This document shows, in pieces, positions 2,980 through 33,412 of a DNA stretch of 34,077 nt. The notes below the pieces were generated by a model. The model saw only the letters and a list, made by a program, of their open reading frames with translations, did no database searches and had not been told where the DNA came from. The stretch comes from a virus (lineage: Duplodnaviria; Heunggongvirae; Uroviricota; Caudoviricetes), in the IMG/VR virus record IMGVR_UViG_2547132421_000005; one strand, written 5' to 3'. Made by a program: the position numbers and the translations under genes. How positions within the stretch are numbered: position 1 is the first letter of the stretch; every line of letters starts with the position of its first letter.

Positions 2980-3411
2980 TCAATATCTATTCCTGTAATA
3001 TCTTTTATCTTTTATCTTTTTCCTTGCAAAGCCTTTTGCTAGTGATTTTGAAACACTCATAAGTGTACTAATTCCCTCATCCTTAAAGTTTGTTTTTATA
3101 GCTTGCCAGACATCCTTTTGACGTAAGTCAGCAATAAAATCATGCCCTCTTGCTGTCAACCTCAGTGGTACTTCGATCCAACTATATCCAACACCTTCCC
3201 CTAACGCTTTGGACAATATATGACCGAACCCAGGTTTTCCATCAACCCTGACTATTAATTCGTAGTCACATAATAATCGCATATGGAAAATAAAATCTTG
3301 GTCATATCTATTAAAGCCATTATCCTCTAGTTCACTAAGCATCGTGTCAGGGCCACGAGTTTTTTCGAATGCGATAAGTAGATCTTTTAGATATTGCTGG
3401 TCTAATTTCAT
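2980..3411 (-). CDS. Hypothetical phage accessory protein, 143 aa (possibly a DUF2513-like family; uncertain)
   Basis: Track ORF; AT-rich coding sequence; no recognisable catalytic motif; lysine/arginine-rich C-terminus. Confidence 0.55.
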   Translation of the reverse strand: MKLDQQYLKDLLIAFEKTRGPDTMLSELEDNGFNRYDQDFIFHMRLLCDYELIVRVDGKPGFGHILSKALGEGVGYSWIEVPLRLTARGHDFIADLRQKDVWQAIKTNFKDEGISTLMSVSKSLAKGFARKKIKDKRYYRNRY

Positions 3412-10098: not shown

Positions 10099-10159
10099 GA
10101 GTGTTTTTGAAGAAAACTTAAATTTTGTTGCGAAGCTTAAGTTTTGCTTTGATTTTTAA

Positions 10160-13924: not shown

Positions 13925-14452
13925 CTATCAAATCAAATACGCCAGCACACGACAAGGACTGCTGGCAAACGAACGCCGCTTTGGCTTTTTGATGCACTGG
14001 ATATTGAGTTTGGATTCTGGCTGGATTCGGCAGCGAGCGACAAAAATGCTCTGTGTGCTCACTGGCTAACTGAGGCCGACGACGCGCTCAATTCTGAGTG
14101 GGTAAGCCACGGTGCAATCTGGAATAACCCACCGTACAGCAATATCAGGCCGTGGGTGGAAAAAGCTGCTGAGCAGTGCATACAACAGCAACAGACGGTA
14201 GTTATGCTTGTGCCAGAGGATATGTCAGTCGGATGGTTCAGCAAGGCTCTGGAGAGTGTCGACGAAGTTCGCATTATCACTGATGGACGGATTAATTTTA
14301 TCGAACCATCGACAGGGCTGGAGAAGAAGGGAAACAGCAAAGGCTCCATGCTGCTGATTTGGCGACCGTTCATCAGTCCTCGACGGATGTTTACTACCGT
14401 ATCCAAAGCGGCATTGATGGCGATCGGGCAGGGCGTCAGGAGGGCGGCATGA
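13921..14452 (+). pseudogene. Phage Dam-like DNA N6-adenine methyltransferase, disrupted by a +1 frameshift (apparent 4-bp tandem duplication aacg-aacg at 13968-13975)
   Basis: ATG at 13921 overlaps the ninB stop; frame 1 reads MTIKSNTPAHDKDCWQTNAALAF then stop; frame 2 continues PLWLFDALDIEFGF...AIWNNPPYSNIRPWVEKAAEQ... with the NPPY catalytic motif, to 14452. Removing one aacg copy gives a continuous ...DCWQTPLWLFDALD... reading. Confidence 0.7.
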
Positions 14453-14625: not shown

Positions 14626-14969
14626 CAATGGATTATTCACAGTTAAGTGATTTTGAAATTAACAGAATGGTAGGAGACATAATTTTTAAAGGCCTTTGGG
14701 CAAGTAAACCGGAAACATCAGGGAATAACACCAACAAATGGTATTACGGAAATGCTGATACAACTTTTGAGCCATTAAATCATTTGCCTGACTACTGCAA
14801 TGATCCGAGCGCTTCCTGGCCGATTATTGAGAAATACAGGATTTCTATCTTAGACCAGTTAACTGAATGGTGTGTGGATGCAAAAGGCGTAAGCCCAATA
14901 TTTGATACCAGACCTCTCCGCGCCGCCATGATTGTCTTTCTCCTGATGCAGGAGGCCAATAATGCTTAG
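14622..14969 (+). CDS. Hypothetical nin-region protein (NinX/DUF2591-like), about 115 aa
   Basis: Within track ORF 14586..14969; ATG at 14622 overlaps the ninE stop. Start uncertain (14622 or 14628). Confidence 0.5.
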
Positions 14970-15156
14970 CCCATCTCAATCCCTTCAATACCTGAAAGGA
15001 AGCATAGAGCGGGCTTCAATGTGCACAGAGTGGATTCTATCTAGGTTTAGCGCATACAGAAGATTGCCGGTAAAGGGCATGCCAAGCAAGTCGATGCTGC
15101 ATATGCAAAAGAATGCGCGCTGGAAGGTATGGCGAGAACACAGGTTATCTGGCTGA
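14962..15156 (+). CDS. Hypothetical small protein in NinF position, 64 aa
   Basis: Track ORF; the first 18 residues [18 protein letters not shown] resemble lambda NinF but the rest diverges. Confidence 0.35.
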
Positions 15157-15175
15157 AAGAGGGGGTTATTAAGGC

Positions 15176-15537
15176 GTGAATACCTACAGCATCACATTAC
15201 CCTGGCCTCCGAGCAATAATCGCTATTACCGCCATAATCGCGGGCGCACGCACGTCAGCGCAGAGGGGCAGGCATACCGCGATAACGTCGCCCGAATCAT
15301 TAAAAACGCAATGCTGGATATCGGCCTGGCTATGCCTGTGAAAATCCGCATTGAGTGCCACATGCCGGATCGCCGTCGCCGTGACCTGGATAATCTGCAA
15401 AAAGCCGCTTTTGACGCACTCACTAAAGCAGGTTTCTAGCTGGATGATGCTCAGGTCGTTGATTACCGCGTTGTGAAGATGCCTGTTACCAAAGGTGGGA
15501 GGCTGGAACTGACCATCACCGAAATGGGGAATGAATG
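15176..15537 (+). pseudogene. rusA: RusA Holliday-junction resolvase interrupted by an in-frame amber codon (TAG at 15437-15439, codon 88)
   Basis: Track ORF 15176..15439 stops after ...DALTKAGF; the same frame continues [32 protein letters not shown] to a TGA at 15535-15537, which I recognise as the RusA C-terminus. Confidence 0.75.
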
Positions 15538-15675
15538 ATGTTTGAGTTTAATATGGCAGAACTTCTTCGCCACCGCTGGGGGCGTCTGCGCTTATATCGT
15601 TTCCCCGGTTCTGTTTTGACCGATTACCGAATACTGAAGAATTACGCCAAAACACTGACAGGAGCAGGAGTATGA
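15538..15675 (+). CDS. ylcG: YlcG-like small protein, 45 aa (not in track)
   Basis: My own translation: MFEFNMAELLRHRWGRLRLYRFPGSVLTDYRILKNYAKTLTGAGV; ATG overlaps the rusA stop. Hand-read. Confidence 0.55.
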   Translation: MFEFNMAELLRHRWGRLRLYRFPGSVLTDYRILKNYAKTLTGAGV

Positions 15676-15760: not shown

Positions 15761-16138
15761 ATGCGTGATATTCAGATGGTTCTTGAGCGTTGGGGAGCGT
15801 GGGCGGCTAATAATCATGAAGATGTGACCTGGTCGTCCATTGCCGCCGGTTTTAAGGGATTAATTCCTTCAAAAGTAAAATCTCGCCCACAATGTTGTGA
15901 CGATGACGCGATGATCATTTGCGGGTGCATGGCCCGTCTGAAAAAGAACAACAGCGATTTGCATGATTTATTGGTGGACTATTATGTCGGCGGCATGACT
16001 TTTATGGCGCTTGCACGTAAGCATGGGCGATCTGATTGTTGGGTTGGCAGGATGCTTCAGAAAGCTGAGGGCGTAGTGGAGGGTATGCTGATGGTGTTGG
16101 ATCTCCGATTGGAGATGGATGCTGATTGTTCGAAATAA
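15761..16138 (+). CDS. Late-gene antiterminator Q (phage 82 / DLP12 QuuD type), 125 aa
   Basis: Internal ATG of track ORF 15746..16138: [60 protein letters not shown]; Cys cluster typical of Q82-type proteins. Confidence 0.85.
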
Positions 16139-16293: not shown

Positions 16294-16818
16294 TTATTGT
16301 TTAACCCATAATAATTCATTGACATTGAATCCCAACTTTTGAGCGGTTCGCACATAGTCTGCTTTTACTTTATCTGGAATAGTTGGGGTCCTTGCCAGAA
16401 TCCATAGGTATTCTCTGTTCGGACCACTGACAAGAGCATACTTATACTCATCATCCAGTTTGATTACATTATAGCCACCATAGAAGGGGCCAAAAAACGA
16501 AACCTTCAATGCTGCAGTTTTAGTATCTCCAGTAAAGTATGCTTTACCTTCGCTCTCGCTCCATTTATTTTTCGTTGGATCGTATCCACGGTTAAGTACA
16601 CGAATCCCTCCGTCGTTCCGTTTTCCATAAGTAGCGCTGACCTGTTCCAGACCACGTTCGAACCGGTTCTCGAGGCGAGCTATTTCATACCATTTTCCGA
16701 GGTAGCGGTTGGCGTCAAAATTTGTAATCGGCTGCACACCTTTAGGTGGTGTCGGGGCCTTACATGCTATAAGAGTGAAAGAGAGTGCAATGCCAGTCAA
16801 CACAGGCCATAACTTCAT
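16294..16818 (-). CDS. blc: Blc-like outer-membrane lipocalin lipoprotein, 174 aa
   Basis: Track ORF; signal peptide plus lipobox LIAC; YLGKWYEIARLENRFERGLEQVSATY is the lipocalin signature of Blc. Confidence 0.85.
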   Translation of the reverse strand: MKLWPVLTGIALSFTLIACKAPTPPKGVQPITNFDANRYLGKWYEIARLENRFERGLEQVSATYGKRNDGGIRVLNRGYDPTKNKWSESEGKAYFTGDTKTAALKVSFFGPFYGGYNVIKLDDEYKYALVSGPNREYLWILARTPTIPDKVKADYVRTAQKLGFNVNELLWVKQ

Positions 16819-17010: not shown

Positions 17011-17970
17011 ATGATAAAAAAACCTGTGATTGGAATCAGCGGTTGTTTGGCCGGTTCTGCTGTTCGTTTTGATGGTGGTCACAAAAGAGCTGACTTTTTA
17101 ATGGACAAATTAGTGGAATGGGTAACATTCAGACCAGTATGTCCGGAAATGGCTATAGGGCTGCCAGTTCCGCGTCCTGCTCTACGTCTTGTGCGCTCGA
17201 TGCAAGGAAATATACGGATGTGTTTCAGCCACGACCAGAATGAGGATGTGACAGAGAGAATGACAGAGTTTAGTCGTTCTTATATGGACAAATTAAAGGA
17301 TGTATCGGGGTTTGTGGTTTGTGCTAAATCTCCCAGCTGTGGCATGGAGCGCGTGCGTGTCTATGATGAAAATGGTAATCGAGGTCGTAAAGATGGAGTG
17401 GGACTATTTACGAGCACTTTGATGGAAAAGTTTTCCTGGCTACCGGTTGAAGAGGATGGGCGATTACATGATCCAGTGCTTCGTGAGAATTTTGTTGAAA
17501 GAGTTTTTGCTTTGCATGAGCTCAATCACCTTTACAAGGAGAAATTATCAAGAAGAGAGTTATTAGCTTTTCATAGTCGTTATAAGCTTCAGTTGTTGGC
17601 GCATAGTCAGGCAGGCTATAAAGATATGGGACCATTTGTGGCTGCAATACACGAGTGGGCGGACCTTGAATCATACTTTGAGGTGTATCGTGATAAGCTG
17701 ATGGCGATTCTCAGAAAACCTGCATCACGTAAAAATCACACGAATGTGCTGATGCATATACAGGGGTATTTTAGTAACTACTTAAGTACACGCCAGCGTA
17801 AAGAGTTGAGCGAGGTTATACTTAACTATCGTTCTGGCACATTACCTCTTCTTGCGCCGTTGACTCTGCTGAAGCATTATCTGGGTGAGTATCCTAATGA
17901 TTACTTGCTTACACAGAATTACTTCGATCCCTATCCGGACGAACTGGCTCTAAGACTGATGGTAAATTAA
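17011..17970 (+). CDS. DUF523-DUF1722 fusion protein (TudS/RudS-like thiouracil/4-thiouridine desulfidase family), 319 aa
   Basis: Track ORF; N-terminal Cys-rich DUF523-like region (GISGCLAG...CPE...SPSCG) and YbgA-like C-terminal half; family assignment from memory. Confidence 0.7.
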   Translation: MIKKPVIGISGCLAGSAVRFDGGHKRADFLMDKLVEWVTFRPVCPEMAIGLPVPRPALRLVRSMQGNIRMCFSHDQNEDVTERMTEFSRSYMDKLKDVSGFVVCAKSPSCGMERVRVYDENGNRGRKDGVGLFTSTLMEKFSWLPVEEDGRLHDPVLRENFVERVFALHELNHLYKEKLSRRELLAFHSRYKLQLLAHSQAGYKDMGPFVAAIHEWADLESYFEVYRDKLMAILRKPASRKNHTNVLMHIQGYFSNYLSTRQRKELSEVILNYRSGTLPLLAPLTLLKHYLGEYPNDYLLTQNYFDPYPDELALRLMVN

Positions 17971-19240: not shown

Positions 19241-19296
19241 ATGAAATCCATGGATAAGTTAACAACGGGTGTCGCCTATGGCACCTCAGCAGGTAG
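19241..19296 (+). pseudogene. 5' fragment (18 codons) of a class II holin S (S21/EssD-like), truncated by IS3
   Basis: GGAGGTGAGG RBS, then MKSMDKLTTGVAYGTSAG with the dual-start MKSM motif, directly followed by the IS3 left inverted repeat at 19297. Hand-read. Confidence 0.6.
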
Positions 19297-19361
19297 TGAT
19301 CTTACCCAGCAATAGTGGACACGCGGCTAAGTGAGTAAACTCTCAGTCAGAGGTGACTCAC

Positions 19362-19661
19362 ATGACAAAAACAGTATCAACCAGTAAAAAACCCCGTAAA
19401 CAGCATTCGCCTGAATTTCGCAGTGAAGCCCTGAAGCTTGCTGAACGCATCGGTGTTACTGCCGCAGCCCGTGAACTCAGCCTGTATGAATCACAGCTCT
19501 ACAACTGGCGCAGTAAACAGCAAAATCAGCAGACGTCTTCTGAACGTGAACTGGAGATGTCTACCGAGATTGCACGTCTCAAACGCCAGCTGGCAGAACG
19601 GGATGAAGAGCTGGCTATCCTCCAAAAGGCCGCGACATACTTCGCGAAGCGCCTGAAATGA
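19362..19661 (+). CDS. insE: IS3 transposase OrfA (InsE), 99 aa
   Basis: Track ORF 19353..19661; [54 protein letters not shown]. Confidence 0.9.
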
Positions 19662-20524
19662 AGTATGTCTTTATTGAAAAACATCAGGCTGAGTTCAGCA
19701 TCAAAGCAATGTGCCGCGTGCTCCGGGTGGCCCGCAGCGGCTGGTATACGTGGTGTCAGCGGCGGACAAGGATAAGCACGCGTCAGCAGTTCCGCCAACA
19801 CTGCGACAGCGTTGTCCTCGCGGCTTTTACCCGGTCAAAACAGCGTTACGGTGCCCCACGCCTGACGGATGAACTGCGTGCTCAGGGTTACCCCTTTAAC
19901 GTAAAAACCGTGGCGGCAAGCCTGCGCCGTCAGGGACTGAGGGCAAAGGCCTCCCGGAAGTTCAGCCCGGTCAGCTACCGCGCACACGGCCTGCCTGTGT
20001 CAGAAAATCTGTTGGAGCAGGATTTTTACGCCAGTGGCCCGAACCAGAAGTGGGCAGGAGACATCACGTACTTACGTACAGATGAAGGCTGGCTGTATCT
20101 GGCAGTGGTCATTGACCTGTGGTCACGTGCCGTTATTGGCTGGTCAATGTCGCCACGCATGACGGCGCAACTGGCCTGCGATGCCCTGCAGATGGCGCTG
20201 TGGCGGCGTAAGAGGCCCCGGAACGTTATCGTTCACACGGACCGTGGAGGCCAGTACTGTTCAGCAGATTATCAGGCGCAACTGAAGCGGCATAATCTGC
20301 GTGGAAGTATGAGCGCAAAAGGTTGCTGCTACGATAATGCCTGCGTGGAAAGCTTCTTTCATTCGCTGAAAGTGGAATGTATCCATGGAGAACACTTTAT
20401 CAGCCGGGAAATAATGCGGGCAACGGTATTTAATTATATCGAATGTGATTACAATCGGTGGCGGCGGCACAGTTGGTGTGGCGGCCTCAGTCCGGAACAA
20501 TTTGAAAACCAGAACCTCGCTTAG
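19658..20524 (+). CDS. insF: IS3 transposase OrfB (InsF; normally made as an OrfAB frameshift fusion), 288 aa
   Basis: Track ORF; DDE integrase-core region ([31 protein letters not shown]...HTDRGGQY...). Confidence 0.9.
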
Positions 20525-20554
20525 GCCTGTGTCCATATTACGTGGGTAGGATCA

Positions 20555-20683
20555 AATGCAGCCTCCCCCCGACTGGCAGACACCGCTGAACGGGATTATT
20601 TCACCCTCCGGGAACGACTGGTAATGATGCAGGCCCAACTTGAAGGTGCTCAGCAATACATAACCGAGCAGTGTTTAAAGTAA
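20555..20683 (+). pseudogene. 3' remnant of the spanin genes Rz/Rz1 (5' part, endolysin and most of holin absent)
   Basis: Immediately after IS3: one frame gives MQPPPDWQTPLNGIISPSGNDW-stop (Rz1-like C-terminus), another gives ...RERLVMMQAQLEGAQQYITEQCLK-stop (Rz-like C-terminus). Hand-read. Confidence 0.6.
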
Positions 20684-20820: not shown

Positions 20821-22278
20821 ATGAATACATCTCATGTAAGAGTTGTTACTCATATGTGTGGGTTCCTGGTTTGGCTCTATAGTCTTTCAATGTTGCCACC
20901 AATGGTTGTAGCATTGTTTTATAAAGAAAAAAGCCTGTTCGTTTTCTTTATAACTTTCGTTATATTTTTTTGCATTGGTGGCGGAGCGTGGTATACAACT
21001 AAGAAATCTGGCATTCAATTACGTACCCGTGATGGGTTTATTATAATTGTAATGTTTTGGATTTTGTTTTCTGTTATTAGTGCATTCCCTTTATGGATTG
21101 ACTCAGAACTTAATTTAACGTTCATTGATGCTCTGTTTGAAGGGGTTTCTGGAATAACAACAACAGGAGCAACTGTAATTGATGATGTTAGTTCATTACC
21201 TCGGGCATATTTGTACTATCGGTCACAGTTAAATTTTATAGGTGGTTTAGGAGTTATTGTTCTGGCGGTTGCTGTATTGCCATTATTGGGTATTGGTGGT
21301 ACAAAGCTTTATCAGTCAGAAATGCCGGGGCCATTTAAGGATGACAAACTCACTCCCCGCCTGGCCGATACGTCACGGACACTGTGGATAACTTATTCTT
21401 TATTAGGTATTGCTTGTATTGTCTGTTATAGACTTGCAGGAATGCCTTTGTTTGATGCTATTTGTCACGGGATTTCCACAGTTTCGCTTGGTGGTTTCTC
21501 AACTCATAGCGAGAGTATCGGATATTTTAATAACTATTTGGTTGAGCTGGTGGCTGGTTCTTTTTCCCTGCTATCGGCTTTCAACTTCACTCTTTGGTAT
21601 ATTGTTATTAGCAGGAAAACGATAAAACCTTTAATCAGAGATATTGAACTTCGTTTCTTTCTGTTAATAGCCTTAGGGGTGATCATTGTTACCTCTTTCC
21701 AGGTCTGGCATATAGGTATGTATGACTTGCATGGAAGTTTTATTCATTCGTTTTTTCTTGCCAGCTCCATGCTCACTGATAATGGTTTAGCTACGCAGGA
21801 TTATGCAAACTGGCCCACGCACACGATAGTGTTTTTGCTGTCGTCAAGTTTCTTTGGGGGATGTATAGGTTCAACTTGTGGTGGAATTAAGTCACTTCGA
21901 TTTCTTATACTTTTCAAACAAAGCAAACACGAGATAAATCAGCTTTCTCATCCCAGAGCGTTGTTGAGTGTAAATGTAGGAGGGAAGATAGTTACAGATC
22001 GTGTAATGAGGTCTGTATGGAGTTTCTTTTTTCTTTATACTCTCTTCACGGTGTTTTTTATACTGGTGTTAAATGGTATGGGATATGATTTTCTTACATC
22101 ATTTGCAACAGTGGCTGCATGTATTAATAATATGGGATTAGGTTTTGGGGCTACTGCATCGTCATTCGGAGTGCTTAATGACATTGCAAAATATTTAATG
22201 TGCATAGCTATGATTCTTGGTCGCCTTGAAATTTATCCTGTTATTATATTGTTTTCAGGTTTTTTTTGGCGCTCCTAA
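20821..22278 (+). CDS. trkG: TrkG/TrkH-family K+ uptake membrane protein, 485 aa
   Basis: Internal ATG of track ORF 20803..22278 (MNTSHVRVVTHMCGFLVWLYSLSMLPPMVVALFYK...), recognised as the Rac-prophage trkG type; polytopic membrane protein; AT-rich. Confidence 0.9.
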   Translation: MNTSHVRVVTHMCGFLVWLYSLSMLPPMVVALFYKEKSLFVFFITFVIFFCIGGGAWYTTKKSGIQLRTRDGFIIIVMFWILFSVISAFPLWIDSELNLTFIDALFEGVSGITTTGATVIDDVSSLPRAYLYYRSQLNFIGGLGVIVLAVAVLPLLGIGGTKLYQSEMPGPFKDDKLTPRLADTSRTLWITYSLLGIACIVCYRLAGMPLFDAICHGISTVSLGGFSTHSESIGYFNNYLVELVAGSFSLLSAFNFTLWYIVISRKTIKPLIRDIELRFFLLIALGVIIVTSFQVWHIGMYDLHGSFIHSFFLASSMLTDNGLATQDYANWPTHTIVFLLSSSFFGGCIGSTCGGIKSLRFLILFKQSKHEINQLSHPRALLSVNVGGKIVTDRVMRSVWSFFFLYTLFTVFFILVLNGMGYDFLTSFATVAACINNMGLGFGATASSFGVLNDIAKYLMCIAMILGRLEIYPVIILFSGFFWRS

Positions 22279-32714: not shown

Positions 32715-32990
32715 GTGGCTTCTGTTTCTATCAGCTGTCCCTCCTGTTCAGCTACTGACGGGGTGGTGCGTAACGGCAAAAGCACCGCCGGACATCAGCG
32801 CTATCTCTGCTCTCACTGCCGTAAAACATGGCAACTGCAGTTCACTTACACCGCTTCTCAACCCGGTACGCACCAGAAAATCATTGATATGGCCATGAAT
32901 GGCGTTGGATGCCGGGCAACAGCCCGCATTATGGGCGTTGGCCTCAACACGATTTTACGTCACTTAAAAAACTCAGGCCGCAGTCGGTAA
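32715..32990 (+). CDS. insA: IS1 InsA, 91 aa
   Basis: Track ORF; [43 protein letters not shown]. Confidence 0.9.
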
Positions 32991-33412
32991 CCTCGCGCAT
33001 ACAGCCGGGCAGTGACGTCATCGTCTGCGCGGAAATGGACGAACAGTGGGGCTATGTCGGGGCTAAATCGCGCCAGCGCTGGCTGTTTTACGCGTATGAC
33101 AGGCTCCGGAAGACGGTTGTTGCGCACGTATTCGGTGAACGCACTATGGCGACGCTGGGGCGTCTTCTGAGCCTGCTGTCGGCCTTTGACGTGGTGATAT
33201 GGATGACGGATGGCTGGCCGCTGTATGAATCCCGCCTGAAGGGAAAGCTGCACGTAATCAGCAAGCGATATACGCAGCGAATTGAGCGGCATAACCTGAA
33301 TCTGAGGCAGCACCTGGCACGGCTGGGACGGAAGTCGCTGTCGTTCTCAAAATCGGTGGAGCTGCATGACAAAGTCATCGGGCATTATCTGAACATAAAA
33401 CACTATCAATAA
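32909..33412 (+). CDS. insB: IS1 InsB reading frame (normally expressed as an InsAB' frameshift fusion)
   Basis: Track ORF; overlaps the 3' end of insA in the -1 frame, as in IS1. Confidence 0.85.

Follow-up and report, generated by a model that had tools for sequence, protein, structure and literature searches.

A derived amber codon in rusA, probably a young pseudogene in a decaying lambdoid prophage of Escherichia coli

The window, meaning the whole 34,077-nucleotide stretch that was analysed, is a segment of an E. coli chromosome that carries a lambdoid prophage inserted at attB-lambda, with ybhC on one side and ybhB/bioA on the other. Its left end holds ybhC, int and xis, and in the closest genomes ybhB/bioA lies just past the right end. 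The prophage retains the repressor, cro, cII, O, P and the nin genes, and it is within this nin region that rusA is located. Translation of the window places the rusA start at a GTG at 15176 on the plus strand. From there the former reading frame, which PGAP and identity to K-12 identify as a rusA pseudogene, runs over 15176-15538 (plus strand; 120 codons and a TGA), while the ORF that remains translatable covers only 15176-15439 (plus strand; GTG, 87 codons and a premature TAG) and matches PF05866. The premature stop is an amber codon at 15437-15439 (plus strand), in place of codon 88. Its ancestral form, as read from the alignment with K-12, ATCC 43896, WP8-S18-CRE-02 and 81EVA, is TGG (Trp), and the mutated base is the A at 15438. 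The untranslated C-terminal remnant (15440-15538, plus strand) consists of codons 89-120 and the original stop and encodes Asp90/Asp91 as well as beta-strands 3 and 4.

Beyond the TAG, 32 sense codons follow in frame before the TGA at 15536-15538. An open run of this length has a probability of (61/64)^32, or about 0.2, of arising by chance and is unremarkable alone; the truncated frame is accepted as real because of its homology to intact rusA (32 of 32 residues and 362 of 363 nt) and not because of the length of the run. The original prediction of a rusA gene with an amber at codon 88 and an intact frame downstream is therefore borne out by translation of the window. Its extent had been given as 15176-15537, of which the start is correct and the end falls one base short of the TGA.

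On the left, the last 90 nt of ybcO (DUF1364) remain at 15090-15179 (plus strand) and overlap the start of rusA; these coordinates are taken from PSJ-14, whose collinear record, as annotated by PGAP, is shifted by one base relative to the window. Homology to the K-12 prophage DLP12 also begins at 15090. On the right, ylcG (15535-15675, plus strand) is intact and encodes the YlcG family protein WP_000971055.1. Its ATG at 15535-15537 shares the sequence ATGA (15535-15538) with the original rusA stop, as had been expected from the overlap proposed for the two genes. The premature stop sits 96 nt upstream of ylcG, and any translational coupling of ylcG to rusA through the ATGA is probably lost by early termination. 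Q is likewise intact downstream. A scan for promoters and terminators around rusA found nothing above the shuffled expectation.

Comparison with intact rusA genes points to the origin of the amber codon. The sole difference from the DLP12 rusA of K-12 is G>A at 15438. Codons 89-120 encode the same residues as positions 89-120 of K-12 RusA (PDB 1Q8R), and once Trp88 is restored, the whole product is identical to 1Q8R (120 of 120 residues). In WP8-S18-CRE-02, 81EVA and ATCC 43896, whose copies of this prophage occupy the same locus and diverge from the window by no more than about 1 SNP per kb, codon 88 is TGG. A single TGG-to-TAG transition had been proposed, and this one-base difference from both K-12 and the sister prophages at the same site agrees with it. 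Similarly, the expected tryptophan at codon 88 was found when homologues were aligned: all 25 of them (69-94% identity) have Trp88, Asp90 and Asp91. Natural termination at this position would have spoken for a short form of the protein, but no complete RusA homologue ends near position 88, and all extend about 32 residues beyond it. On these alignments, the TAG allele is a derived state. Deamination at a Dcm site (CCWGG) was considered as the source of the G>A change and was rejected; the minus-strand context is GCCAGA, which contains no Dcm site, and the mutated base is therefore not a 5-methylcytosine hotspot.

The TAG allele is rare among sequenced genomes. A 60-mer centred on the TAG is matched exactly in 3 of about 3,330 rusA-bearing complete E. 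coli genomes (3,326 with any match to the 60-mer), whereas its TGG version is matched exactly in 1,973 complete genomes. The three carriers are PSJ-14 (human, Ecuador), 74-2 (broiler, China) and EC529 (chicken meat, Vietnam), and in PSJ-14 and EC529 the 60-mer occurs at a single place per genome. RefSeq already flags the allele as a pseudogene: PGAP annotates the identical sequence in these three genomes as rusA, crossover junction endodeoxyribonuclease, pseudogene with an internal stop (AABJ92_RS15120 in PSJ-14, G9P51_RS15230 in 74-2 and ACZ5CO_RS15615 in EC529). The exact 87-residue product is also present in public protein collections, for example as BEB26321.1 and EMZ94485.1 in GenBank. 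All of these records have the same rusA as the window, including the TAG, and the window represents a further strain.

One of these relatives is PSJ-14 (NZ_AP027626.1), with which the window is collinear over 8557-34077. A rounded identity of 100.0% had suggested that the two were the same; at base level this was rejected, as there are 8 SNPs over 25.5 kb and the IS1 and ISEc22 insertions of PSJ-14 are absent from the window. The window accordingly belongs to a different strain with the same prophage lineage. Bases found only in the window occur at 10102, 22605, 24861, 25706 and 29715 in comparison with PSJ-14, EC529, WP8-S18-CRE-02 and 81EVA (and, at 10102, ATCC 43896), counting only the relatives that cover the given position. 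These five SNPs place the strain of the window outside the complete RefSeq genomes searched. A further small difference lies at 2999-3005, where an extra TATCTTT heptamer gives three copies in the window relative to two in 74-2, EC529, WP8-S18-CRE-02 and 81EVA; this slippage-type indel alters the C-terminus of a DUF2513 gene (2980-3411, minus strand).

The TAG allele is found in three mosaic contexts, and the rusA sequence is identical across the backgrounds that carry it. The first is that of the window, with NinX, the ybcO remnant, the truncated rusA, ylcG, a 125-residue Q, the lipocalin and YbgA. The second, in L014 and L019, has the same left arm and crosses over within Q, near 15964, into a DLP12-like arm with Q127, a porin and a holin. 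The third, in L021, is a DLP12-like prophage with a full-length ybcO, and it matches the window identically at 15090-15653 only. Because this common 564-nt tract includes three SNPs that differ from K-12 DLP12, its sequence favours homologous recombination between lambdoid prophages over recurrent mutation as the source of the TAG in L021. This pattern suggests that the dead rusA allele moves between prophages by recombination. The relative age of the allele can also be bounded: 74-2 has the TAG and yet retains the ancestral A at 14816, and the TAG therefore predates the change at 14816. By the same kind of comparison, the TAG also predates the differing IS insertions and deletions of the individual carriers. 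Three mosaics on three continents are a spread somewhat wider than that of a pseudogene that has just happened. Thus, of the earlier description as a very recent pseudogene, the second part stands and "very recent" has to be qualified, the allele being present in three complete genomes, in drafts, in metagenomes and in three mosaics.

In K-12 DLP12, which is likewise a defective prophage, rusA also should not be transcribed in the lysogen, and its neighbourhood of ybcO remnant, rusA, ylcG and Q is the same. The two differ at codon 88, which is TGG in K-12 and TAG here, where only 87 residues are made. They differ also in that the window prophage is at attB-lambda and in the Q gene and the morons downstream of it (lipocalin and YbgA).

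Several other phage functions of the window prophage have been lost. An IS3 element (19295-20554, plus strand) replaces the holin and endolysin genes, beside which only remnants of rz1 and of a lysis protein survive, at about 20556-20683, and an IS1 element (about 32715-33412) truncates the morphogenesis (head-tail) module, from which the tail genes are missing. In contrast, the less decayed sister prophages still have lysis and tail genes, and those of 81EVA and WP8-S18-CRE-02 retain essD, rrrD and rzpD. A 4-bp insertion (AACG, 13968-13971) frameshifts the gene for a Dam-like phage N-6-adenine methyltransferase; the insertion is common to PSJ-14 and EC529 and absent in WP8-S18-CRE-02 and ATCC 43896, while the methyltransferase gene of 81EVA has another frameshift, at 14332. 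By its gene content, the prophage is evidently unable to complete a lytic cycle. The rusA allele has the marks of a young nonsense pseudogene in a decaying prophage, namely a single derived disabling change, its recurrence in independent assemblies and other decay around it. The prophage also carries cargo: a Blc-like lipocalin, a YbgA/DUF523-DUF1722 protein, an AraC-type HTH regulator and trkG occupy the interval from Q to the former lysis cassette and the region past it (16294-16818, minus strand; 17011-17970, plus strand; about 20821-22278, plus strand). These genes are intact amid the decaying phage functions.

The truncation removes parts of RusA that are known to be important. In the RusA monomer, two helices flank a sheet of four strands, and it is through these sheets that the monomers meet in the dimer (PMC1636454). 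Asp70, Asp72, Lys76 and Asp90/91 are critical for endonuclease activity, and Asp91 lies within the cation-binding site (Macmaster et al. 2006, PMC1636454); roles for Arg69, Asp70, Asp72 and Lys76 are described in the same study. The 87-residue product keeps the catalytic and DNA-binding residues Arg66-69, Asp70, Asp72 and Lys76, all within residues 64-76, and lacks Asp90/Asp91, as codons 90 and 91 are downstream of the TAG. Against PF05866 (RusA; curated cut-off 22.8 bits), the 87-residue ORF scores 55.1 bits over profile positions 1-95 of 124, and the 120-residue form with Trp88 restored scores 82 bits over positions 1-123 of 124; both are above the cut-off. In an AlphaFold2 model of the 97%-identical homologue P0004 (mean pLDDT 83.8), strands are placed at 3-9, 55-62, 94-102 and 109-116 and helices at 29-44 and 71-85. 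The strands at 94-102 and 109-116 are both downstream of the rusA stop, such that two of the four are lost and the ORF falls short of the full RusA fold of about 120 residues with its four-stranded sheet and two helices. With Asp90/Asp91 and two strands removed, the 87-residue product should therefore be inactive, and sequence and model together predict a fragment that is misfolded or catalytically dead.

Taken together, rusA in the window is very probably (about 0.93) a loss-of-function nonsense allele of a prophage Holliday-junction resolvase, and a young pseudogene in a decaying prophage. A G:C>A:T transition at 15438 would have converted Trp88 (TGG) to amber (TAG), such that translation would end after 87 residues. 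IS elements have cost this prophage its lysis and tail genes while its repressor remains, and rusA would therefore go unexpressed in the lysogen and never be called upon in lytic growth. K-12 rusA is itself "normally quiescent", and its expression requires insertion of IS2 or IS10 upstream (PMC1636454; PMC10956419). With the gene silent and lytic growth absent, there would therefore be no purifying selection on rusA, and a nonsense hit would be ordinary decay. The mutation is most simply explained as neutral decay, after which the allele may have spread by clonal descent and probably also via recombination between lambdoid prophages. Near-cognate read-through of the UAG could still yield traces of full-length RusA.

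It is very unlikely that the truncation is instead adaptive or functional, that is, that loss of RusA was selected, for instance because toxic junction cleavage is avoided when the nin region is transcribed, or that the 87-residue fragment acts as a junction-binding or dominant-negative protein. The persistence of the allele in chicken and human isolates, across three continents and three mosaics, would agree with such a role, as would the retention of the DNA-binding loop together with Arg66-69, Asp70, Asp72 and Lys76. However, only 3 of the roughly 3,330 rusA-bearing complete genomes carry the allele, the fragment is without half of the beta-sheet at the dimer interface, and clonal spread and the usual recombination among lambdoid prophages explain the distribution. 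Less probable still is a TAG that is not neutral in that the fragment, which retains the Arg-rich DNA-binding loop and, of three catalytic aspartates, two, is junction-binding or dominant-negative, or in that rare read-through of UAG-C gives a tolerated dose of nuclease. If true, this could explain the persistence of the allele over such a range of places and prophage mosaics.

The original prediction also allowed that rusA is functional and conditional, with full-length protein made only in an amber-suppressing background where a suppressor tRNA of the host or prophage decodes the stop. In-frame UAG codons within otherwise intact lambdoid phage genes are familiar from the laboratory lambda alleles Sam7, Oam29 and Pam80, which were engineered or selected and are grown on supE or supF hosts. 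The downstream frame of rusA is fully intact, which speaks for suppression. However, a nonsense mutation of recent origin would leave the frame intact in any case, and the TAG is rare and derived where a stop maintained for read-through would be conserved among orthologues (TAG in 3 genomes against TGG in 1,973, with Trp88 invariant). A cognate suppressor was sought among the tRNA genes that are able to become amber suppressors in one step, by searching 5,426 complete genomes for CUA-anticodon versions of K-12 glnV/X, tyrT/V, serU, leuX and trpT. No CUA version of tyrT/V or trpT, and no full-length one of leuX, was present among the 5,426 genomes, and one genome (DSM 498) had a CUA serU. CUA alleles of glnV/X (supE) do occur, in 155 genomes, and all 45 among the matches listed look like K-12 laboratory derivatives. 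Some of the listed supE genomes are labelled as coming from mouse gut or Homo sapiens.

Within the carriers themselves, the glnV/glnX clusters of PSJ-14, 74-2 and EC529 were read directly and have wild-type CTG anticodons. CUA versions of tyrT/V, trpT, leuX and serU are absent from these three genomes, in a search bounded by those loci, with tyrU, plasmids and other acquired tRNAs outside it. ARAGORN found no tRNA gene in the window, to which the scan of the window's own strain was confined, or in 12 TAG-carrying prophage segments. Unlike the suppressor hosts of the lambda alleles, the natural hosts of the rusA TAG are thus without a detectable amber suppressor, and no cognate CUA tRNA is found in the searched loci of the carriers. 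Expression only in an amber-suppressing background therefore has little to recommend it and is barely credible.

Finally, a sequencing or assembly artefact with a true G (TGG), also raised in the original prediction, might be entertained for a difference of one base in a window with several SNPs missing from its closest relatives (at the five positions given above), but its likelihood is practically negligible, as the identical TAG recurs in three complete genomes that were sequenced independently and in all ten further contigs read (NCBI isolates, ENA metagenomes and a Logan assembly), and the 87-residue product is indexed in 94 blocks of an assembly collection.

The rusA TAG allele is an ordinary nonsense pseudogene, and its geographic spread and three mosaic contexts are only mildly interesting extras. 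The finding has little import beyond correct annotation and leaves current understanding unchallenged. For strains in which the TAG allele is the only close copy of rusA, it means that RusA would not be available as a back-up Holliday-junction resolvase, unlike in the rus-1 and rus-2 mutants of K-12. Overall, the locus offers a tidy case of stepwise prophage decay, in which a dead allele appears to have travelled between lambdoid mosaics.
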